DNA of 32,000 nt from positions 930,001-962,000 of the forward strand of contig NC_014034.1 in the NCBI RefSeq assembly GCF_000021865.1, in the 5' to 3' direction. This stretch comes from Rhodobacter capsulatus SB 1003 (lineage in GTDB: Bacteria; Pseudomonadota; Alphaproteobacteria; Rhodobacterales; Rhodobacteraceae). Below the pieces are notes generated by a model. It was not told the DNA's origin, searched no databases, and saw only the letters and a program-made list of their open reading frames with translations. A program made the translations under genes and the position numbers. How positions within the stretch are numbered: the first letter of the stretch is position 1; every line of letters begins with the position of its first letter. Positions 1 through 24,792 of the stretch are shown here, one piece after another.

Positions 1-777
1 CGGGCCGCCTGTCTGCGCCTGCCGGGCGAGGACGAGATCGCCGCGGCGCTGTTCGCGCGCGGCGACACCCCCGACCCCGAGGCGATCCGGGTGGCGCGGC
101 GCAAGCTGATGAAGATGCTGGCCACCCGTCACGGCGCGGCGCTGAGCCGGGTCTATGACAGCTGCGCGGTCGCGGGCCCCTACAGCCCCGACGCGGGGCC
201 CGCCGGGCGCCGGGCGCTGCGGCTGGCCACGCTCGCGCTGCTGACGACCGAGGATGGCGGCGCGCGGGCGGCGGCCCTGTTTGCGGAAGCGACGAACATG
301 ACCGAAAGCATCGGTGCGCTGAACCTGCTGGTGGCCGAGGGCAAGGGGCAGGGGCAGCTGGCCGGTTTCGCCGCGCGCTGGGCCGCCGATCCGCTGGTGA
401 TGGACAAGTGGCGGATGGCGCAGGGCGCGCTGACGCCCCCCGAAGACGCGGCCGAAACCGTGGCGCGGCTGGCGGCGGCACCGGAGTTCGACTGGAAGAA
501 CCCGAACCGCTTCCGCAGCCTTTTGGGCGGCTTTGCCGCCAACCATGCGGGCTTTCACCGCGCCGATGGCGCGGGCTATGCGCTTTACGCCGATTGGCTG
601 TTGCGCCTCGATCCGCTCAATCCGCAGACCGCGGCGCGGATGTCGACCGCGTTTGAGACCTGGCGGCGTTACGATGCCCCCCGTCAGGCCCATGCGAAAG
701 CGGCGCTGGCCCGGATCGCCGCCACCCCCGGCCTCAGCCGCGATCTTGGCGAGATGGTCGGGCGGCTTGCAGGCTGA
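1..777 (+). CDS. pepN: Aminopeptidase N, C-terminal part (5' end lies outside the window)
   Basis: Frame 1 is open from base 1 to TGA at 775-777. The translation (DPLVMDKWRMAQG..., NPNRFRSLLGGFAANHAGFHRADGAGY, LNPQTAARM) matches the conserved PepN (M1 family) C-terminal domain. Confidence 0.8.
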   Translation, partial: RAACLRLPGEDEIAAALFARGDTPDPEAIRVARRKLMKMLATRHGAALSRVYDSCAVAGPYSPDAGPAGRRALRLATLALLTTEDGGARAAALFAEATNMTESIGALNLLVAEGKGQGQLAGFAARWAADPLVMDKWRMAQGALTPPEDAAETVARLAAAPEFDWKNPNRFRSLLGGFAANHAGFHRADGAGYALYADWLLRLDPLNPQTAARMSTAFETWRRYDAPRQAHAKAALARIAATPGLSRDLGEMVGRLAG

Positions 778-804
778 AAGCGCCGGGGCGCTGCCCCGGA
801 CCCC

Positions 805-858
805 GGCGTATTTGCGCCAAGAAGAAGCTCCTCCGTTTCTTCTTGGCAAAAATACGCC
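805..858. repeat. 54-nt imperfect inverted repeat (22-nt arms, 20/22 complementary, 10-nt loop gctcctccgt), downstream of pepN
   Basis: The left arm ggcgtatttgcgccaagaagaa (805-826) pairs with the right arm ttcttcttggcaaaaatacgcc (837-858). A small GC hairpin, ccgggg-cgctg-ccccgg (783-799), lies just upstream. Confidence 0.6.
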
Positions 859-950
859 CTTTCGACCTTACACCCGCCGCGCGGGCGGGCCATCTTGCCC
901 CGCGCCACGCCCTGCCCTAGAAGGGCTCAAGCCGAGAAAGGGAACCCGCA

Positions 951-2468
951 ATGCTTGATCACCTTGCCTTCACCGCCCCCGAACCGAAAGTCATTGCCGG
1001 CGCGAAAAGCGACTGGGAACTGGTGATCGGGATGGAGGTGCACGCGCAGGTGGCCTCGAATGCGAAGCTGTTCTCGGGCGCCTCGACCATGTTCGGCAAT
1101 GAGCCCAATGCCAACGTCGCCTTTGTCGATGCGGCGATGCCGGGCATGCTGCCGGTGATCAACGAATTCTGCGTGGCGCAGGCCGTGCGCACCGGGCTGG
1201 CGCTGAAAGCCGGGATCAACCTGCGTTCGGCCTTTGACCGCAAGAACTACTTCTACCCCGACCTGCCGCAGGGCTATCAGATTTCGCAGCTCTACCACCC
1301 GATCGTGGGCGAGGGCGAGATCATCGTCGACATGGGGCCGGGCGTGGCGCGCAAGGTGCGGATCGAGCGGATCCACCTGGAACAGGATGCGGGCAAGTCG
1401 ATCCATGACATGGACCCGACCATGTCCTTCGTCGATTTCAACCGCACCGGTGTGGCGCTGATGGAAATCGTCTCGCGCCCCGACATTCGCGGCCCGGAAG
1501 AAGCGGCGGCCTATATCGCCAAGCTGCGGCAGATCCTGCGTTACATCGGCACCTGCGACGGCAACATGCAGAACGGCAACCTGCGCGCCGATGTGAACGT
1601 CTCGGTCTGCCGTCCGGGGCAATACGAGAAATATCAGGCGACCCAGGATTTCAGCCATCTGGGCACGCGCTGCGAGATCAAGAACATGAACTCGATGCGC
1701 TTCATCCAGCAGGCGATCGATTACGAAGCCCGCCGCCAGATCGCTATTCTGGAGGATGGCGGGTCGATCGTGCAGGAAACCCGGCTTTACGACCCGGACA
1801 AGGGCGAGACGCGGTCGATGCGCTCCAAGGAAGAGGCGCATGATTACCGCTATTTCCCCTGCCCGGACCTGCTGCCTTTGGAGATCGAACAGGCCTGGGT
1901 CGATGACATCGGCGCCACGATGCCGGAACTGCCCGATGAGAAAAAGGCCCGTTTCGTCAAGGATCTGGGGCTTTCCGAATATGACGCCTCGGTGCTGACG
2001 GCGGAAGTGGCCGATGCCGAATATTTCGAAGCCGTGGTGGCGGTGGCCGAAGATGGCAAGCTGGCCGCGAACTGGGTGATCAACGAGCTCTTCGGGCGCT
2101 TGAAGAAAGAGGGCCACGAGATCGGCCAAAGCCCGGTCAGCCCGGTGCAGCTGGGGGGGATCATCAAGCTGATCCGCTCGGGCGACATTTCGGGCAAGAT
2201 CGCCAAGGATCTGTTCGAGATCGTCTATACCGAGGGCGGCGACCCGGCGGCGATCGTCGAGGCCCGAGGCATGAAGCAGGTGACCGATCTGGGCGCGATC
2301 GAGGCGGCGGTCGATGAGATCATCGCCGCGAACCCCGCGCAGGTGGAGAAGGCGAAGGCCAATCCGAAGCTGGCGGGGTGGTTCGTCGGCCAGGTGATCA
2401 AGGCGTCTGGCGGCAAGGCCAACCCCGCCGCGGTCAACGAGATCGTGGCGCGGAAGCTCGGGTTGTAA
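951..2468 (+). CDS. gatB: Asp-tRNA(Asn)/Glu-tRNA(Gln) amidotransferase subunit B
   Basis: 505-aa ORF with typical GatB sequence ([29 protein letters not shown]-terminal GatB/YqeY tail). AAGGGAA lies upstream of the ATG. Confidence 0.95.
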
Positions 2469-2473
2469 GATTG

Positions 2474-2506
2474 AAAAGGCGCTCCTGCGGGGGCGCCTTT
2501 TGGTTT
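2474..2506. terminator. Bidirectional intrinsic terminator shared by gatB (+) and the AT-rich ORF (-)
   Basis: aaaaGGCGCtcctgcgggGGCGCCtttt is a GC stem flanked by an A-tract on the left and a T-tract on the right. It lies 6 nt after the gatB stop and about 25 nt after the minus-strand ORF stop. Confidence 0.7.
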
Positions 2507-2531
2507 CTGGGGGAAGTCGAGGCGGAGCTAT

Positions 2532-3668
2532 TTAGTTATCTGATTGCCGAATTAACTCTTCATAAAGAAGCGAAATGCCGATGATAGCTGTGATGTTGCC
2601 CCGCCTTCGCAATTCATCTGCGATTTTCTTTACGGAGGAATCAAAGGCGCTTCGATACGTGCGCGGGTTTTCCAGAAAGGCTCGTGAGTTGAAGTCGAAG
2701 AATATCAACTTGTGAAACTCACTCCGTTCTTCGGCCATAAGGGCTTCTTTGGTGATGGAGGTCGATGACTTCTCTATGTGTGAGTAGAAATAAAAGTCGG
2801 GAAAGCCAAGTCTATAATACTCCCTAATTCCGCCTAGAAATATAGGTGGTGATTTTTTATCATAGAAGTGAACCCCGAGTTCTTTTAAGCATTCACGGTT
2901 CAAGCTTTGTATGATGCGGTTAAGCCCATCTTGGTCGCTTTCGAGTTCAAGCAGGTCATTTCCTTCAATCGTGCCGGAAAAAGAAGCGGAGATAGAGTTC
3001 GGTCTATTCGCGACAAATCTACTTCTAAGCTGAAAGATCAACTTGTTGTCGGATGTTTCTGTCATTCCCACAACACCCATGTGCCAAGTCAAATCCTCAG
3101 ATCCGAGCTGCGGAAGCTGGTGGGAGTCATTGAGTAGTTTTCTGCGAAGCGTGGTTCCCTCTAATATGATGTCGGGAGAAAAGTGAGTCCTGAGTGAGTC
3201 GAAGTAACTACATCTAGAGAATGTTATCGAGATTTCATTATCATGGAATTCGATCTTGTTTATGCAAAATGGCTCGCCGTCGAATAAGTGATTCCGTTTT
3301 TTGCCAGATTTCCTTAAATCGTCCAGTAGTGGCTCCGTGAAACTCGATACTTTTCGGCTTAAAATTCGCTTTTCGTCATTCCATCGAAGGGTAATTCTCT
3401 TTGATTTACTTTCTGCTGGCGATATGAAGTGGCAAGCTGGTAGGTAATCCACTTTTCCACTGATGAATGTTTTGATGTGGTTTTCTTTCCCGTAGAACTT
3501 GAAAAGGTCTGTCTCGGATATAATCTCAGACTTGTTTTTAAATATTTCATTCCGGTCGCGAAAGCTTCTGAGGGGGCCAAGTCTAATTCCCTTGGAGAAT
3601 AAACCATCTAAAGTCTTTAAGATGGCCCATCTGACCGACGTTTCAGCAAAGAAAATCCAATCCAGCAT
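2532..3668 (-). CDS. Orphan 378-aa protein encoded in an AT-rich island. The C-terminal half resembles a degenerate Nudix fold. Function unknown.
   Basis: This is the only long ORF in the low-GC segment. ATG at 3668 (a TTG at 3683 is also possible) is preceded by GAGAG. Sequence features: GVVGMTETSDNKLIFQLRSR...SFSGTIEG...LNRECLKELGV, followed by beta-like segments. Codon usage is AT-rich, unlike every neighbouring gene. Confidence 0.85.
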   Translation of the reverse strand: MLDWIFFAETSVRWAILKTLDGLFSKGIRLGPLRSFRDRNEIFKNKSEIISETDLFKFYGKENHIKTFISGKVDYLPACHFISPAESKSKRITLRWNDEKRILSRKVSSFTEPLLDDLRKSGKKRNHLFDGEPFCINKIEFHDNEISITFSRCSYFDSLRTHFSPDIILEGTTLRRKLLNDSHQLPQLGSEDLTWHMGVVGMTETSDNKLIFQLRSRFVANRPNSISASFSGTIEGNDLLELESDQDGLNRIIQSLNRECLKELGVHFYDKKSPPIFLGGIREYYRLGFPDFYFYSHIEKSSTSITKEALMAEERSEFHKLIFFDFNSRAFLENPRTYRSAFDSSVKKIADELRRRGNITAIIGISLLYEELIRQSDN

Positions 3669-3903
3669 AGCGTTAACTCTCAACCTCTCTCGATCGTTCT
3701 TAATTTATTCTTTAGCCGCCTTGCTTTGCGTGTTGTTCGCCGATTCGGTTTGCTTTGTTTTGATGGGGTTAACGTTGTGAGCTTTTCGGCGGAAAACAGT
3801 ATCCTCGGTGAGATGTTTCTCAAAGGCGGTTTTGTGTCGCGTATTCCGCTTGCACCCAGCCCCCCCAGCCCCTACTTACCCGCAAAACCCAAGGGAGATT
3901 TGA

Positions 3904-4878
3904 ATGAGCGGCCTTCTCGCCCTTCTTGATGACGTGGCGGGGATCGCCAAGATTGCGGCCGCCTCGGTGGATGATGTCGCCGCGGGCGCCGCCAAGGCCG
4001 GGGCCAAGGCCGCGGGCGTGGTCATCGACGATGCCGCCGTCACGCCGCGCTATGTGCATGGGTTCGAGGCCAGCCGCGAATTGCCGATCGTGGGCAAGAT
4101 CGCGATGGGCTCGATCCGCAACAAGCTGGTGTTCCTTCTGCCCATTGCGCTGCTCTTCTCGGCCTTTGCGCCCTGGGTGATCACGCCGCTTCTGATGCTC
4201 GGCGGCGCTTATCTGTGTTTCGAGGGCGCGGAAAAGGTGTTTCACGTCCTTTTCCAGCATGCGCCCCATGCCGATGGCCATGTCGATCCGAATGATGATC
4301 CGGCGGGCGATCCGGCGCATCTGGAGCGCGAAAAGGTCTCGGGCGCGGTGAAGACCGATTTCATCCTTTCGGCCGAGATCATGACCATCGCCATGGCCTC
4401 GCTGCCCGCGGGGCAGCCGCTCTGGATGCAGACGCTGGCGCTGGCGGCGGTTGCGGTGGGGATCACCGTGCTGGTCTATGGCGGTGTCGCGCTGATCGTG
4501 AAGGCCGATGACGTCGGGCTGTGGCTGGCGCGCAGGGGCAAGATTGCGCCCATTCGCTGGGTCGGGCGCGGCCTGGTGCGAGCGATGCCGCCGCTGCTGA
4601 CGGCGCTCTCGATCCTGGGCACGGCGGCGATGATCTGGGTTGGCGGCTCGATCCTGCTGCATGGCGCGGCCGAACTCGGCTGGCCCGCCGCCTATGACGC
4701 GATCCATCATCTGGCCGAGGCGGCGGGGCATCTGTTGCCTGCGGGCGGCTTCACCGAATGGCTGGTGACGGCCGCCTGCGATGGCGTGCTGGGACTGATC
4801 TTCGGGCTGCTGCTGATCCCGCCGGCACTTTATGTCGTGGATCCGGCCTTGCGGCTGGTCGCCCGGCTGCGCGGCTGA
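3904..4878 (+). CDS. DUF808 family inner-membrane protein (YedI-like)
   Basis: 324-aa ORF with RBS AAGGGAGA. The N-terminus MSGLLALLDDVAGIAKIAAASVDDVA...VVIDDAAVTPRYV and the multiple hydrophobic segments are typical of DUF808/YedI. Confidence 0.85.
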   Translation: MSGLLALLDDVAGIAKIAAASVDDVAAGAAKAGAKAAGVVIDDAAVTPRYVHGFEASRELPIVGKIAMGSIRNKLVFLLPIALLFSAFAPWVITPLLMLGGAYLCFEGAEKVFHVLFQHAPHADGHVDPNDDPAGDPAHLEREKVSGAVKTDFILSAEIMTIAMASLPAGQPLWMQTLALAAVAVGITVLVYGGVALIVKADDVGLWLARRGKIAPIRWVGRGLVRAMPPLLTALSILGTAAMIWVGGSILLHGAAELGWPAAYDAIHHLAEAAGHLLPAGGFTEWLVTAACDGVLGLIFGLLLIPPALYVVDPALRLVARLRG

Positions 4879-5433
4879 TCAGACCGCCGTCGGCAGCGGC
4901 CGCGCCCCGGCGGGAACGCCGTTCAGCATCCGCAGCTTGCCCTGACGCTGCGGCGCGGGGCGGGGGGGCTGGGCCGGGCGCCCCTCGGGGCCGAGCGGTT
5001 CCGGATGCGCCATCAACAGCCCGTGCCGCGCCTTCAGCGCCGAAAGCGCCGCCGCCGTGCGCAGATCTTCCAGCGCCGCCAGGGTCTGGTGCAGCTGCGC
5101 CGAAAGTGCGCTCAGCTGCGGCTCGGGCAGGGTGTCGTGCCGGGTGCGCTGCGCCTGGGCGCGCAGGATGAATTCCGCCTGCATCGTCACCGCGGCCAGC
5201 ATCCGCATTTCGCCCACGGCGAGGTCAAGGTCTTCTTCCTGCAGCAAAAGCCAGCGTTCGCGCGCCTCGCCCGCATGGGCGACGACTTGCAGCGCCTTGT
5301 CGCGCACCGTCTCGATCTGCTGGCGCAATGCGGTCAGACGGGCGGCCCGGCGGGTGGCACCGGGCGTCAGCAGGTTGCGCATCCGCACCCAGAGGCTGGG
5401 GGGCTGCTCTTGGCCGTGGTCTTCGGGGGACAT
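4879..5433 (-). CDS. Hypothetical protein, 184 aa, Ala/Leu/Arg/Gln-rich and predicted helical
   Basis: High G/C at third codon positions in this frame. The internal ATG at 5433 is preceded by AAGGAAG. The N-terminal 93 aa of the track ORF look like non-coding read-through. I recognise no family. Confidence 0.7.
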   Translation of the reverse strand: MSPEDHGQEQPPSLWVRMRNLLTPGATRRAARLTALRQQIETVRDKALQVVAHAGEARERWLLLQEEDLDLAVGEMRMLAAVTMQAEFILRAQAQRTRHDTLPEPQLSALSAQLHQTLAALEDLRTAAALSALKARHGLLMAHPEPLGPEGRPAQPPRPAPQRQGKLRMLNGVPAGARPLPTAV

Positions 5434-5516
5434 CTCGATCTTCCTTTGCCTCGCGTTCGCCGGTGGGGGGTGGGCCCCCCGGCGTCTTCTTTTTCGCAAG
5501 ACTCGCGCAGGATTGG

Positions 5517-5532
5517 TTAAGATATGGTTAAC
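5517..5532. promoter_or_regulatory. Candidate CtrA box, TTAA-N7-TTAAC
   Basis: TTAAgatatggTTAAC lies about 85-100 nt upstream of the ATG at 5433. The minus strand also reads TTAACCAT (5524-5531). Confidence 0.5.
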
Positions 5533-5666
5533 AATCCCGGCGTCCCCCCGGAGCGGAGGAATTATCGGCTCCGGCGATGTCGATTTGCATCGCTCTGGCG
5601 CCGACCGGGCACTGGAACTTGTGCCACTGGTCTGCCCGGCCCGCACAGGCGGGCGGGGCCGTGCTG

Positions 5667-6278
5667 TCAGACGATGCGGCGACGCTCGATCTTTTCGATG
5701 ATCATCGCGCATTCCTCGACCAGATAGAAGAAATAGTCATGCTTGATGTCGAGCCCGTCCAGCATCAGGCTGGACATGAAGCGCAGCTTCGCCGTCGCCT
5801 CCAGGATCGAGGTCGGACGGTGGTCGAGGATGTCCTGCTCCGCCACGCCCATGCGGTAGCGGTAAAGCTTGATCATCTCTTCCAGATCCTCGATCGCCAC
5901 CATCTCGGGGCTGCAGGCCTTGAGCACGAAGCGGCGGTGCGCATTGGGCAGGCCCTCGGGCACGACGCGCTTGGCCAGATCGCTCAACTGCTTGAAATCC
6001 GGGAAAGACAGGTCGGTGATCGTCAGGCTGTCCCGGGCCACCATCTCGCCCGAATCCAGCGCGACCGTGTCGGTCTCGGCCTCGGTCTCGCGCTGCTTGG
6101 CGTAGAACTGCCGCGACAGGGTCTCCTGTTCGACGATCAGATCTTCCAGCAGATGTTCGAGATAGTCGTATTGCGCGATCTTCTCGGACAGGGCCAGGTG
6201 TTCCGTTTCCGCCGCCACGGCGACCGCAACCGGCTGGGCTTCTTTCATCTCGTGCTTCTTGCGGAACGTGAACGCCAT
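5667..6278 (-). CDS. Hypothetical acidic protein, 203 aa
   Basis: ATG at 6278 is preceded by GAGGAG. Third codon positions show the native high G/C. I recognise no family (MAFTFRKKHEMKEAQ...YFFYLVEECAMIIEKIERRRIV). Confidence 0.75.
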   Translation of the reverse strand: MAFTFRKKHEMKEAQPVAVAVAAETEHLALSEKIAQYDYLEHLLEDLIVEQETLSRQFYAKQRETEAETDTVALDSGEMVARDSLTITDLSFPDFKQLSDLAKRVVPEGLPNAHRRFVLKACSPEMVAIEDLEEMIKLYRYRMGVAEQDILDHRPTSILEATAKLRFMSSLMLDGLDIKHDYFFYLVEECAMIIEKIERRRIV

Positions 6279-6396
6279 GTTGGTTCTCCTCGGCTGGTCG
6301 GCACCCTTTGGGCACCTGTCTGATGAAGCCACTATCGGCGTCGGCTGCGGCATGAGTGAGGAAGCTTTTCGGAATTGTCGCCCAAAGTGGAAACAA

Positions 6397-6415
6397 ATGG
6401 TTAACGACGTGTTGA
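6397..6415. promoter_or_regulatory. Candidate CtrA half-site (TTAACCAT on the minus strand) with a near-full site TTAA-N7-TTGA
   Basis: The sequence is atggTTAAcgacgtgTTGA. It also contains the 7-bp inverted repeat acgacgt-gttg-acgtcgt. Confidence 0.35.
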
Positions 6416-6430
6416 CGTCGTCAAGAATCC

Positions 6431-6445
6431 TTAATGACTCCTTAA
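6431..6445. promoter_or_regulatory. Candidate CtrA box, TTAA-N7-TTAA
   Basis: TTAAtgactccTTAA is a perfect full-site spacing. It lies about 155 nt upstream of the ATG at 6278 in a locally AT-richer stretch. Confidence 0.45.
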
Positions 6446-6481
6446 TTCCCCGGCCAACCCCTTAAAACTTGGGGAAAACTG

Positions 6482-6489
6482 TTAACCAT
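6482..6489 (+). promoter_or_regulatory. Candidate CtrA 8-mer, TTAACCAT
   Basis: Exact TTAACCAT on the plus strand within the divergent intergenic region. Confidence 0.3.
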
Positions 6490-6854
6490 GCGGCAATAAT
6501 TCCGCTTTCGCGGCGGCACTGGTTGCGCGCGCTCAACCATCGGTCGGTGGCAATTGTGGCAAAATTGCGCGATCCGGGCCGCTTCGCCGCGATCCCGCCG
6601 CGGTTCGCCGCCCCGGGCCTCGGAGGCCGGGCAGGGGGGCTTGACGTGGCCGCGTTGACGATTCGCGCGGCGGGGCCGGGGCGGTCGTTCGCGTTGCGGA
6701 AACGCCGGGCAGTCGCCGGGCGTTTTCGCGCCGCAAGGCGCCTTTGCGTTCGGGCGCGCTTGATCTTCCGCAAGGAACGGGCCAGCTTCGTCGGATCGGG
6801 TCGGTCCGCTTCGGATCGCCCCGGCCAAGAACAGACAGGACAGGGAGTCCGCAT

Positions 6855-8453
6855 ATGACATCACTCCGCAGCCTTCGCCCGGTGGCCGCTTTCGCCGCCC
6901 TTCTTGCTTGTGTCGCGCCCGCCGCGCTTTTTGCGCAGACGCCCGCCGACACGCTGGTTCTGGCCGATGCGATCGACGACATCGTCTCGATCGATCCGGC
7001 CGAAGCCTTTGAATTCTCGGGCGCGGACCTGAACAACAACCTTTACGATTCGCTGGTGGAACTGGACCCCGCGAAACCCGGTGAGCTGGTGCCCGGTCTG
7101 GCCGAAAGCTGGTCGGTCGATGCCGATGGCGTCACCTATCGTTTCAAGATGCGCCCGGGCGTCACCTTCTCCAGCGGCAATCCGGTCACCGCCGAGGCCG
7201 CGGCCCAGTCGCTGCGCCGCGTCGTCAAGATGGACAAGACCCCGGCCTTCATCCTGACCCAGTTCGGGCTGACCAAGGACAATGTCGATCAGACCGTCAG
7301 CTTTGACGGCGACACGCTGATCCTGAAGACCGACAAGCCCTATGCGCCGACCTTCATCTACAACTGCCTGACCTCGACCCCCGCCTATATCGTCGATGTC
7401 AAGGCGGCGATGGAGCACGAGGTGAACGGCGACATGGGCAATGAATGGCTCAAGTCGCATTCCGAAGGCACCGGCGCCTATGTGCTGCGCTCCTTCAAGC
7501 CGAACGAGGGCTATATCCTGCAGGCCCGCGAGGGGCATTGGCGCGGCGATGCGCCGATCAAGAACGTGCTGATGCGCCATATCCCCGAGGGCGCGACGCA
7601 GCGGCTGCTGATCGAAAAGGGCGACATCGACATTGCCCGCGAAATGACGCCGACCGATATCGAGGGCGTCAGCGGCAATCCTGACATCGTGGTGCAAAAT
7701 GACGTCGGCGGGCAGATCTACTATCTGGCGATGAACCAGAAGGTGGCCGATCTGGCGAACCCGAAGGTGCTCGAGGCGATGCGCTGGGCGGTCGATTATC
7801 AGGGCATGGCCGACAGCATCCTGAAAGGCCAGTGGGTCGTGCATCAGGCCTTCCTGCCCAAGGGCTTCCTGGGGGCGCTGGACGACACGCCCTACAGCCT
7901 TGATCTGGAAAAGGCGAAAGCGGCCTTGGCCGAGTCCGGCGTGAAACTGCCGCTGGAAGTCAGCCTGACCGTGCGCAACAACCCCGAGCGGATGAACATC
8001 GCGCAATCGGTGCAGCATACGTTCGGGCAGATCGGCATCAACGTCACGCTGGATGTGGGCGACGGCAAGCAGGTGCTGGAGAAGTTCCGCGGCCGTCAGC
8101 ATCAGATCACCCTGCAGACCTGGGGGCCGGATTATCCCGACCCCCACACGAACGCCTCGACCTTCGCGGAAAACCCCGACAACTCGGACGAGGCCAAGGC
8201 GACGGGCTATCTGGCCTGGCGCACGGCCTGGGATCCGGGTGCGATGGGGGCGCAGGCCGAGGCCGCCGTGGCCGAGCCCGATGCCGCCAAACGCGCCGCG
8301 ATGTATGAAGACATGCAGCGCGTGCACCGCGACAGCTCGGCCTTCGTGACCATGTTCCAGATGGCGCGGCAGGATGCTTTGCGCGCCAATATCAAGGGCT
8401 TCCATGCTGGCGGTGCCACCGACCAGGCGAGCTACTGGACCGTGACCAAGTAA
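6855..8453 (+). CDS. ABC transporter substrate-binding protein, family 5 (peptide/nickel, DppA/OppA-like)
   Basis: ATG at 6855 follows GGGAG. A signal peptide is present (MTSLRSLRPVAAFAALLACVAPAALFAQT). The mature protein has typical SBP_bac_5 sequence. Confidence 0.9.
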   Translation: MTSLRSLRPVAAFAALLACVAPAALFAQTPADTLVLADAIDDIVSIDPAEAFEFSGADLNNNLYDSLVELDPAKPGELVPGLAESWSVDADGVTYRFKMRPGVTFSSGNPVTAEAAAQSLRRVVKMDKTPAFILTQFGLTKDNVDQTVSFDGDTLILKTDKPYAPTFIYNCLTSTPAYIVDVKAAMEHEVNGDMGNEWLKSHSEGTGAYVLRSFKPNEGYILQAREGHWRGDAPIKNVLMRHIPEGATQRLLIEKGDIDIAREMTPTDIEGVSGNPDIVVQNDVGGQIYYLAMNQKVADLANPKVLEAMRWAVDYQGMADSILKGQWVVHQAFLPKGFLGALDDTPYSLDLEKAKAALAESGVKLPLEVSLTVRNNPERMNIAQSVQHTFGQIGINVTLDVGDGKQVLEKFRGRQHQITLQTWGPDYPDPHTNASTFAENPDNSDEAKATGYLAWRTAWDPGAMGAQAEAAVAEPDAAKRAAMYEDMQRVHRDSSAFVTMFQMARQDALRANIKGFHAGGATDQASYWTVTK

Positions 8454-24087: not shown

Positions 24088-24176
24088 GTGCTCTCCCGCG
24101 TTCCGGTTGCCGCGCCCCAGCCTAGCACGGGGCGGCGGCGGCGGGGGCGCGACCGATTGCGCGGCCGGACCAGAAT

Positions 24177-24195
24177 CACTTTGGCGCCCAAAGTG
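24177..24195. promoter_or_regulatory. Palindrome CACTTTGG-cgc-CCAAAGTG in the DASS/rplM divergent region (candidate operator)
   Basis: 8-bp perfect arms with a 3-nt spacer, 90-108 nt upstream of the DASS start. Two AT-rich palindromes follow immediately (24197-24210 and 24224-24236). Confidence 0.4.
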
Positions 24196-24327
24196 GGGTA
24201 TTTTAATACCTATTTTTCAAGCCATTGATTTTCAATGAAATAAATCGCATCAACGCGCTTGCTTTGGGATCGGAAAGCGCGGATAAGCCCGCATCCAGTT
24301 TCCCAACCCTTCAAAGGGCGATCGACA

Positions 24328-24792
24328 ATGAAAACCTATACCGCGAAACCGGCGGAGATCGAGAAGAAGTGGATCCTGATCGACGCCGAAGGCGTCGTTC
24401 TGGGCCGCCTCGCCACGATCGTTGCCATGCGCCTGCGTGGCAAGCACAAGCCGACCTTCACCCCCCACATGGACATGGGTGACAACGTCATCATCATCAA
24501 CGCCGACAAGGTGCAGATGACCGGTGCCAAGCGCGAAGACAAGCGCTACTACTGGCACACGAACCACCCGGGCGGGATCAAGTTCCGCACCGCGCGTCAG
24601 GTTCTGGAAGGCGCGCATCCCGAGCGCGTGGTGATCAAGGCCGTCGAACGCATGATCTCGCGCAACCGTCTGGGCCGCGCGCAGATGTCGAACCTGCGCG
24701 TCTACGCCGGGGCCGCCCATCCGCATGAAGCCCAACAGCCCGAAGTTCTGGACGTGAAAGTCCTGAACAAGAAGAACACCCGGAGCGCCTGA
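24328..24792 (+). CDS. rplM: 50S ribosomal protein L13
   Basis: [30 protein letters not shown]... is a canonical L13 sequence. Confidence 0.97.

Follow-up and report, generated by a model that had tools for sequence, protein, structure and literature searches.

Human NUDT22, the closest described relative of the gene considered here, is an outlier of the human Nudix family that has no conventional Nudix box (PMC5688067); it is presented as a UDP-glucose/galactose hydrolase that converts UDP-glucose to UMP and glucose-1-phosphate (PMC10101856). In the literature on prokaryotic conflict systems, Nudix domains are listed among the putative effectors directed at ADP-ribose or NAD+ (Kaur et al. 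2020, PMC7159879), and effector-associated domains (EADs) are, by definition, typically coupled to effector domains (PMC8195603); both papers mention Nudix only generically, with no NUDT22-like family. None of the papers recovered in our literature search describes bacterial NUDT22-like proteins as a family, in defence or otherwise. Here we describe such a family starting from orf378, a stand-alone gene of Rhodobacter capsulatus SB 1003 that lies between gatB and a DUF808 gene in a 32,000-nt stretch of contig NC_014034.1 (positions 930,001–962,000; hereafter the window, whose own numbering is used throughout). We conclude that orf378 is a prokaryotic, mobile branch of the NUDT22-type Nudix fold, located in a hotspot of cargo exchange and associated with biological conflict at the level of its family.

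orf378 occupies 2532–3668 on the minus strand and encodes 378 aa counted from its ATG; an alternative TTG start five codons upstream would give 383 aa, and the alignment of homologues favours the ATG. The product is identical to ADE84607.1/WP_013066586.1 of R. capsulatus SB 1003, annotated as 'hypothetical protein', and the exact protein is found on 142 contigs; no paper in our literature search mentions ADE84607 or WP_013066586. A first-pass annotation, made from the sequence alone, had recognized no established family for the full-length protein and had singled it out as the best candidate in the window for something undescribed. Regarding existing models this was correct. The only Pfam match was a sub-threshold one to DUF7309 (E = 0.035) and nothing meaningful was returned from NCBIfam, PADLOC or PHROGs; we dismissed the DUF7309 match and the weak PHROG matches as noise. 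The family is likewise unnamed, yet the protein has a clear two-domain homologue in NUDT22 and a recognizable fold of that type, and it is far from alone. A word-indexed search had returned two homologues, and this near-orphan status proved to be an artefact: an exhaustive HMMER search identified at least 1,207 family representatives (50%-identity clusters) at E ≤ 1e-3, 414 at E ≤ 1e-10 and 53 at E ≤ 1e-30, most of them 340–400 aa in length. The 90%-identity cluster that contains orf378 is represented by an unrelated 54-aa Rubrobacteraceae peptide and mixes many such peptides with the R. capsulatus proteins, a clustering artefact that probably lies behind both the absence of the query's own cluster among the homologues and the initial orphan appearance. 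The R. maris homologue carries the UniRef name 'Nudix hydrolase domain-containing'.

The assignment to NUDT22 rests on structure and on profiles. An AlphaFold2 (AF2) model built from a 3-sequence alignment had a predicted local distance difference test (pLDDT) score of 40 and was discarded; the model used, built from a 101-sequence alignment of the family, has a pLDDT of 90.6 and a predicted template modelling (pTM) score of 0.87. In a Foldseek search of the PDB with this model, the top six matches were all human NUDT22 (E = 7e-16 to 1e-14; target-normalized TM-score 0.67–0.72; about 316 aligned columns; 18–19% identity). These matches span the NUDT22-specific N-terminal domain together with the Nudix domain, whereas all others cover about 150 residues of generic Nudix domain only (E ≥ 3e-6). 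Dozens of Nudix domains, solved structures as well as viral ones, match at Foldseek probabilities of 0.8–1.0 and place the protein in the Nudix alpha/beta/alpha sandwich. The 101-sequence family profile also matches NUDT22 (E = 4.2e-12), with profile positions 89–335 aligned to NUDT22 residues 13–261 across both domains; a 3-sequence profile had given a marginal match (E = 0.15). We regard it as almost certain that orf378 encodes a NUDT22-like two-domain Nudix homologue, the parts of which are placed as follows.

3594–3662, minus strand: N-terminal amphipathic helix, aa 3–25, followed by a low-confidence linker at aa 28–37 (DSSP and pLDDT of the AF2 model).

3099–3521, minus strand: N-terminal beta-rich domain, aa ~50–190, the equivalent of the NUDT22-specific domain (Foldseek and profile alignment, in which position 89 aligns to NUDT22 residue 13).

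2649–3098, minus strand: Nudix-fold domain, aa ~191–340 (Foldseek matches to many Nudix domains besides NUDT22).

2871–2927, minus strand: Nudix-box helix, aa 248–266, ending in NRECLKELGV (column counts in the 101-sequence alignment); it aligns to LQEICDEV of NUDT22.

2538–2666, minus strand: C-terminal helical hairpin, aa 335–377, absent from the NUDT22 alignment, which stops near profile position 335 (DSSP helices at aa 335–356 and 359–377).

Like NUDT22 (PDB 5LF9, 5LOR, 5LOU and 5R50), the protein thus combines a beta-rich N-terminal domain with a Nudix-fold domain, and the two families have in common the motifs Y-x-D-[FY]-L-x-T-N, L-R, L-G-V, R-S-x-x-V-A-x-x-P-G, L-L-G-x-x-R and E-S. Unlike NUDT22, from which it differs at more than four-fifths of aligned positions, orf378 adds the N-terminal amphipathic helix with its linker and the C-terminal helical hairpin; it is also a bacterial protein, encoded by a horizontally mobile gene that is present once, in a variable slot.

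The Nudix box of orf378 is non-canonical, as is that of NUDT22. With the canonical Nudix hydrolases (PF00293; for example, MutT, RppH, NudC, ADP-ribose pyrophosphatases and GDP-mannose mannosyl hydrolase) the protein shares the fold and a catalytic helix of the form R-E-x-x-x-E; unlike them, it has an additional NUDT22-type domain and does not match the Pfam NUDIX model even at E ≤ 1. That model matches 20 of the 101 relatives at E ≤ 0.01 (best E = 1.5e-6). The canonical pattern G-x5-E-x7-R-E-U-x-E-E-x-G-U is replaced in orf378 by R258-E259-C-L-K262-E263-L-G265-V with an expanded upstream G/E spacing, such that R258, E259 and E263 are kept and the first glutamate of the EE pair is a lysine (RECLKE here, RECIKE in R. 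maris). Position 262 is Asp in NUDT22 and mostly Glu in the bacterial family (E in 74, D in 6 and K in 4 of the 101 members), and the closest relatives of orf378 likewise have no acidic residue there. Across the family, Y59, R175, G198, R215 and E263 are invariant (101/101), and conservation is nearly complete at R282 and R286 (99/101 each), E259 (97/101), E317 (95/101) and R258 (92/101); within the beta-rich domain, Y59, Y155, T161, D166 and R175 are invariant or nearly so. The near-invariance of E259, E263, E317 and the arginine residues, together with a box R-E-x-x-[ED]-E that is intact in 73 of the 101 members (consensus R-E-x-x-E-E-L-G), argues that the family is enzymatically active. By profile alignment, the glutamates that match E259 and E263 are shared with the active human enzyme, whose box reads Q-E-I-C-D-E. 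Those two NUDT22 glutamates are metal ligands, as Carter and colleagues reportedly found in 2018; these active-site equivalences come from hidden Markov model alignments. For orf378 itself, we lean slightly towards an active hydrolase of nucleoside diphosphates linked to a further moiety X (NDP-X).

The link to conflict comes from what is fused to this module. The position taken by the amphipathic helix in orf378 is occupied in other family members by TIR, SIR2, HEPN, CHAT, EAD11 or helix-turn-helix (HTH) domains, or by a helix that resembles a transmembrane (TM) segment. We identified N-terminal fusions to TIR_2 (P0047 and P0062), SIR2_2 (P0104), HEPN_Swt1 (P0052), CHAT (P0138), HD-CE (P0103 and P0164), PRTase-CE (P0107), EAD11 (three members) and a Cro/C1-type HTH (four members). 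Nitrilase-type PADLOC models match one member, probably P0023, which has a nitrilase-like N terminus by eye, and one member (P0127) carries a C-terminal GT4 glycosyltransferase. Prokaryotic conflict systems draw on this same repertoire of domains. We know of no fusion of NUDT22 to immunity-type domains. The suggestion in the first-pass annotation that the gene may have an accessory, defence-type function receives support at the level of the family, through the TIR, SIR2, HEPN, CHAT, HD-CE, PRTase-CE, EAD11 and HTH fusions. Family members resemble the effectors of nucleoside triphosphate (NTP)-dependent conflict systems (PMC7159879; PMC8195603) in carrying EAD11, TIR, SIR2, HEPN, CHAT, HD-CE or PRTase-CE; unlike those systems, orf378 is solo, without an EAD, an NTPase partner or an operon. 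On the strength of its family, orf378 may be an accessory conflict or defence effector of the NDP-X pyrophosphatase type, a tentative proposal that we hold to be plausible while stopping short of calling it probable.

The family joins a constant module at the C terminus to an N-terminal head that varies, an arrangement typical of sensor–effector proteins. In this subclade the module might have ceased to be fully catalytic (K262) and could be a receptor for a nucleotide-linked ligand, the binding of which would drive oligomerization or membrane attack through the N-terminal helix, as in other members it would trigger TIR, SIR2, HEPN or CHAT. The closest relatives (P0018, P0019 and P0021) have TM-like N-terminal helices and position 262 is non-acidic throughout the closest subclade; moreover, inactive Nudix binding modules exist, such as TIRR, which is among the Foldseek matches. 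NrtR is a further catalytically inactive Nudix binding module. However, degenerate sensors usually lose the very residues (E259, E263 and E317, and the full acidic box) that this family largely retains, the EAD11 fusions indicate an effector role, and the N-terminal helix of orf378 is amphipathic and not a TM helix (hydropathy maximum 0.78). Loss of the acidic residue at position 262 is uncorrelated with TM-like helices (Fisher P = 0.5), and we rejected on this basis an enzyme-to-sensor switch in which the two would go together. We consider a sensor quite improbable.

Genomic context bears on both the effector proposal and the nature of the substrate. Flanking sequence was sufficient for inspection at seven loci (R. 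capsulatus/R. maris, L092, L095, L096, L097, L105 and L106). Solo members sit singly in unrelated neighbourhoods. Defence-related neighbours comprised HicA, 4.4 kb away, at one locus and, at another, situated on an Arthrobacter plasmid of 13.5 kb, a TaqI-like restriction–modification enzyme, in a sample far too small for an enrichment test; the other neighbours were housekeeping or NDP-sugar genes. On the short contig L090 the family gene adjoins an IS256-like transposase. The G+C content of the family gene is below that of its flanks in 7 of 8 host contexts, by 8–23 points in 6 of them. No family match was found in 50,697 phage records (tblastn, query P0026) or among IMG/VR viral contigs (query alignment A3), which marks the family as a host-side gene; plasmid records gave two matches in 72,556, and a metagenome scan gave five loci. 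We found no adjacent cognate partner of the kind expected for a toxin–antitoxin or two-gene abortive-infection system: there is a single credible open reading frame (ORF) in the cargo of SB 1003 and no partner is conserved elsewhere. Directly 3′ of one family member (L094:567–2144) is a 526-aa ORF with, by eye, an N-terminal H-A-E ... P-C-x-x-(x)-C zinc motif like that of cytidine/deoxycytidylate deaminases. This ORF could represent a partner that modifies nucleotides, or else a defence-type gene in its own right.

Nucleotide-sugar enzymes are encoded next door at three of the seven loci. At L096, two UDPG/GDP-mannose dehydrogenases lie 92 nt downstream on the same strand, followed by an APS kinase, a NusG-like gene, an ABC exporter and an epimerase; at L092, a DegT/DnrJ/EryC1 NDP-sugar aminotransferase is directly downstream of the family gene; and at L095, an NDP-sugar epimerase/dehydratase is just upstream. 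These neighbours support an NDP-sugar substrate and also keep alive a role in surface polysaccharides, in which orf378 and the other solo members would be NDP-sugar pyrophosphatases with the task of adjusting or proof-reading the pools of nucleotide sugars used for variable capsules or O-antigens. Polysaccharide loci of this type are themselves AT-rich, horizontally exchanged and strain-variable, and any effect on phages or gene-transfer agents (GTAs) would be indirect, through receptor chemistry. The UDP-glucose/galactose hydrolase activity described for NUDT22 (PMC10101856) fits such an envelope role, as do the Bac_transf and Wzy_C genes found within 6 kb of the slot in a relative in which the slot is empty (L101, see below). 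Set against it are the presence of orf378 in R. capsulatus and R. maris without flanking polysaccharide genes, the four of the seven loci without such neighbours, and the fusions to TIR, SIR2, HEPN, CHAT, EAD11 and HTH, which envelope metabolism leaves unexplained. We rate this explanation as unlikely, although a serious one.

The setting of orf378 in SB 1003 bears on its mobility. G+C content is 43.6% at 2507–3800, compared with a mean of 66.9% (s.d. 2.7, minimum 61.1) for all other 1,294-nt windows (z = −8.6), and in 200-nt windows it falls from 0.665 at 2301–2500 to 0.39–0.48 over 2501–3800 and recovers to 0.62–0.68 by 3801–4100. This is the sole block of such low G+C content within the 32 kb. 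The calculation bears out the abrupt step described in the first-pass annotation, including its hand counts (38.3% at 2761–2820 and 36.7% at 3181–3240, against 63.3% in the gatB line 2341–2400). It likewise agrees that the block holds exactly one long ORF with AT-rich codon usage: G+C at codon positions 1/2/3 is 0.43/0.37/0.49 in orf378, and its third-position value (GC3) of 0.49 compares with 0.848 in gatB and 0.825 in the DUF808 gene. The block limits first given, 2507 and 3800, are close to those refined by alignment, about 2514 and 3845. From left to right, the slot and its borders consist of the following elements.

951–2468, plus strand: gatB, encoding Asp/Glu-tRNA amidotransferase subunit B (Pfam GatB_N and GatB_Yqey); left flank of the slot, conserved at 93–99% aa identity across the compared Rhodobacter relatives.

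2474–2501, folding on both strands: G+C-rich hairpin bordered by runs of A and of T, the intrinsic terminator of gatB and the conserved left edge of the slot.

About 2514–3845: cargo-specific AT-rich segment, 43.5% G+C, an exchangeable cassette (comparative alignment of genomes with differing cargo).

3669–3845, minus strand: 177-nt AT-rich region upstream of orf378, presumed to hold its promoter and 5′ untranslated region.

3846–3903, plus strand: conserved C-rich block with the ribosome-binding site upstream of DUF808, 62% G+C; right boundary of the slot, present whatever gene the slot holds in R. capsulatus, R. viridis and L103.

3904–4878, plus strand: DUF808 membrane protein gene, the conserved right flank (Pfam PF05661; 71–95% aa identity in relatives).

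We retrieved the corresponding junctions of relatives through the 90%-identity clusters of gatB and DUF808. In the lines below, which include metagenome-assembled genomes (MAGs), the percentages are the gatB and DUF808 aa identities to SB 1003.

R. capsulatus lineage L087 (99.4 / 95.1%): slot occupied by orf378 with a +1 A frameshift, split into 281-aa and 110-aa ORFs.

MAG L103/L104 (99.0 / 95.1%): slot occupied by an unrelated 229-aa gene on the other strand, 46% G+C.

R. viridis L099/L100 (98.2 / 92.0%): slot occupied by an unrelated ~473-aa gene, 45% G+C.

MAG L101/L102 (94.5 / 78.8%): slot empty, with a 114-bp junction of 60% G+C.

R. maris L001 (92.9 / 71.3%): slot occupied by an orf378 homologue with 63% aa identity, 42% G+C.

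2848–2861 of the window, minus strand: A-run GATAAAAAATCACC at codon 270 of orf378, the site of the +1 A in the second R. capsulatus lineage.

The gatB–DUF808 junction is a hotspot of cargo turnover that holds one gene at a time, with three unrelated cargos and an empty allele. Together with the foreign composition of the block, this presence/absence polymorphism upholds the earlier view of a horizontally acquired single-gene insertion, for which a comparison of the junction among relatives had been proposed: the slot is empty in L101/L102 and carries unrelated genes in R. viridis and in L103/L104. orf378 is very probably horizontally transferred cargo in a variable slot. The boundaries are sharp. 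On the left, the gatB terminator and a G-run are common to all occupied alleles, and sequences with differing cargo diverge directly after them; on the right, they reconverge in the ~60-nt C-rich block that is common to the capsulatus/viridis group. The 229-aa cargo (L103:7774–8460, and the same in L104) is a very recent replacement in the slot, with flanks just 1.7–2.8% diverged from those of the orf378-bearing lineage L087. The R. viridis cargo (L100:6660–8078, and the same gene in L099) is on the gatB strand. Neither the ~473-aa nor the 229-aa cargo has a Pfam, PADLOC or PDB sequence match; a stretch of the R. viridis protein, KRCDIVHGEE, looks by eye like an R-x4-H HEPN-type motif.

The junction resembles described hotspots of defence or variable genes between core genes in its conserved flanks, sharp boundaries, unrelated AT-rich cargos and empty allele, and in having no integrase, tRNA or target duplication; unlike them, it holds one gene at a time. 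As no known defence family is matched by orf378 or by either of the other two cargos, the slot is at most a candidate defence hotspot. It differs from an integrase-mediated island or integron cassette in having no tRNA, no integrase or transposase within 10 kb and no target duplication or shared boundary repeat. A search of the slot boundaries for target duplications, inverted repeats and att-like sites turned up no convincing candidate, apart from runs of G (left) and C (right) that some genomes carry there. The absence of integrase, transposase and tRNA genes noted in the first-pass annotation stands for tRNA, as a tRNA/tmRNA search of the whole window found none; for integrases and transposases it stands among the Pfam-annotated genes up to 10 kb on either side, the full 32 kb not having been scanned for mobility genes. 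No Rfam family was found at 1–8000. Since the slot shows neither target duplications nor att-like repeats nor a mobility gene, the simplest mechanism of exchange, and most likely the one at work, is homologous recombination within its conserved flanking sequences.

The terminator hairpin is kept in R. capsulatus, R. maris, R. viridis and L103 whatever the cargo. Its minimum free energy is −24.2 kcal/mol on the plus strand (z = −3.6) and −16.2 kcal/mol on the minus strand (z = −2.3), and a T-run follows the hairpin on each strand. A bidirectional terminator had been proposed here; the hairpin and T-runs agree with it, and two-way use, with the gatB terminator also serving orf378 from the opposite strand, is plausible. 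At the other end of the gene, the upstream region 3669–3845 is ~95% conserved in L087 and is not alignable with R. maris.

We compared the divergence of the cargo with that of its flanks. SB 1003 and L087 differ by about 5.7% in the island as in the flanks, with 4–8% spread evenly through both, and synonymous divergence (dS) is 0.195 in orf378, 0.219 in gatB and 0.185 in DUF808. Because island divergence matches that of the flanks across this split, the acquisition is not recent on the species scale, and the 'recent' transfer proposed in the first-pass annotation has to be given up: the gene predates the intraspecies split (dS 0.195 compared with 0.185–0.219 in the flanks), and the island is vertically inherited within R. 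capsulatus. The ratio of nonsynonymous to synonymous divergence (omega) between the two copies is 0.117, which denotes purifying selection. Flank divergence gives the tree (SB1003,(L087,L103)), with 1.7–2.8% between L087 and L103 and about 5.5–5.8% between each of them and SB 1003. The tree implies that the common ancestor of these three carried orf378, which later acquired a frameshift in one lineage and was replaced in its sister; the gene is therefore dispensable. The frameshifted allele (L087:6001–7138 and L088:892–2029; WP_146707220.1 and others, nine contigs) has its additional A in or beside the A-run, where A6 followed by T in SB 1003 reads A8 in the nucleotide alignment; it may represent fixed decay or slippage-prone on/off switching. 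Disruption of the ORF in related strains, which the first-pass annotation would have counted against its own view, is therefore present in part.

These events might suggest that orf378 is a decaying passenger, a remnant of an old transfer that is functionless in R. capsulatus and incidentally kept in SB 1003. In keeping with this, one lineage is frameshifted and its sister replaced, several family-invariant positions are substituted, and a promoter scan of 3669–3845 found no sigma-70-like match on the minus strand. However, the omega value between SB 1003 and L087 is low at a dS equal to that of the flanks, between species the proportion of nonsynonymous differences (pN) is 0.27 against a saturated synonymous proportion (pS), the frame is intact with the exact protein on 142 contigs, and the AF2 model is confident. 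A functionless remnant is very unlikely; orf378 is functional, as judged by purifying selection, yet dispensable.

The copy in R. maris has a history of its own. Between SB 1003 and R. maris, 0.705 of four-fold sites differ in orf378, compared with 0.322 in gatB and 0.426 in DUF808, and pS is 0.87 compared with 0.41–0.47 in the flanks; the fold-difference is rough, given saturation and only 78 four-fold sites. As synonymous rates within the species equal those of the flanks, the two copies of orf378 split several-fold earlier than did their hosts. We rejected simple vertical orthology, since the synonymous depth between species is several-fold that of the flanks and closer relatives have other cargo or none; the pattern indicates that R. 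maris probably captured its gene separately in this slot, or acquired it there by allelic replacement. orf378 remains ~23 points below the G+C content of its host despite ~5.7% divergence (about 0.2 synonymous substitutions per site), which needs explaining. Its nearest relatives (L089, L090, L002, L091 and L093, all metagenomic) have 36–44% G+C themselves, with flanks of about 60–63% in L089 and L090, for which there is little flanking sequence. AT-richness appears to travel with the gene lineage through G+C-rich hosts and not to derive from a single low-GC donor.

For the role that we tentatively favour, that of a conflict effector, the following mechanism can be outlined. As a horizontally acquired gene that stands alone, orf378 occupies a one-gene slot whose content changes from one Rhodobacter genome to another. 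Its product would bind, in the cleft where the two core domains face each other, a metabolite linked to a nucleoside diphosphate, either UDP-sugar-like as for NUDT22 or of the ADP-ribose/NAD type, and the Nudix helix (E259 and E263, with E317 nearby in sequence) would cleave the pyrophosphate bond of that metabolite. Directed against phages or other mobile elements, the effector would strip a nucleotide-linked metabolite that the invader needs or uses as a signal, and would act without a dedicated partner gene.

Several observations weigh against this role. The Rhodobacter proteins depart from the family at near-invariant positions (E262K, N162H, N195W and G287L), and these substitutions may alter or weaken catalysis. 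In PADLOC-DB v2, no family matches orf378, and the sole matches among the 101 relatives are to their fused HTH and nitrilase portions. None of the seven inspected loci is a recognizable defence island and none has a conserved partner gene. The nucleotide-sugar enzymes at three of these loci fit a substrate of the effector and a polysaccharide role equally. The mode of cargo exchange is inferred, with no target duplication, recombination site or mobility gene seen at the slot. Finally, frameshift and replacement in close relatives show that the gene can be lost; such dispensability is normal for accessory or defence genes and is not a refutation.

A bolder extension would make the family a new and widespread one of nucleotide-directed immune effectors, solo or fused to TIR, SIR2, HEPN, CHAT or EAD, that hydrolyse a UDP-sugar- or ADP-ribose-type metabolite needed by phages or GTAs, with human NUDT22, so far an outlier of 'unique fold' among the human Nudix enzymes, descended from this bacterial module and the slot a point of cassette exchange possibly shuffled by the R. 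capsulatus GTA (RcGTA). That all of these parts hold together is doubtful. RcGTA packages about 4 kb of DNA, so a 1.3-kb cargo and its flanks would fit in one particle, and a GTA could, speculatively, shuffle such cassettes between strains.

The surroundings of the slot show further variation. Genes after DUF808 differ between relatives and divergence jumps there, such that the region to the right of the slot is also variable: a 184-aa and a 203-aa gene (4879–6400; no Pfam match, about 58–62% G+C) are present in R. capsulatus and L103, their place is taken by a DUF218 gene in R. maris and by a lipA-like radical SAM gene in L101, and divergence between SB 1003 and R. viridis rises to 0.18–0.36 just past DUF808. 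Elsewhere in the window, G+C content dips below 0.54 in 300-nt windows only at ~6201–6500 and ~24151–24500, both short and intergenic-looking.

The biological role of NUDT22 has only recently begun to be explored, and the protein now gains prokaryotic relatives in more than 1,200 sequence clusters, whose domain fusions point to biological conflict. Defence by way of nucleotide-linked metabolites currently includes the depletion of NAD+, dNTPs and ATP. If the solo proteins protect against phages, they would constitute a new single-gene defence family that acts on nucleotide-linked metabolites. The locus itself is a small, clean case of cargo exchange between core genes without a mobility gene, with three cargos and with empty, frameshifted and replaced alleles. 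As its host is a classic model organism for GTAs, GTA-mediated exchange of accessory genes is directly testable here.

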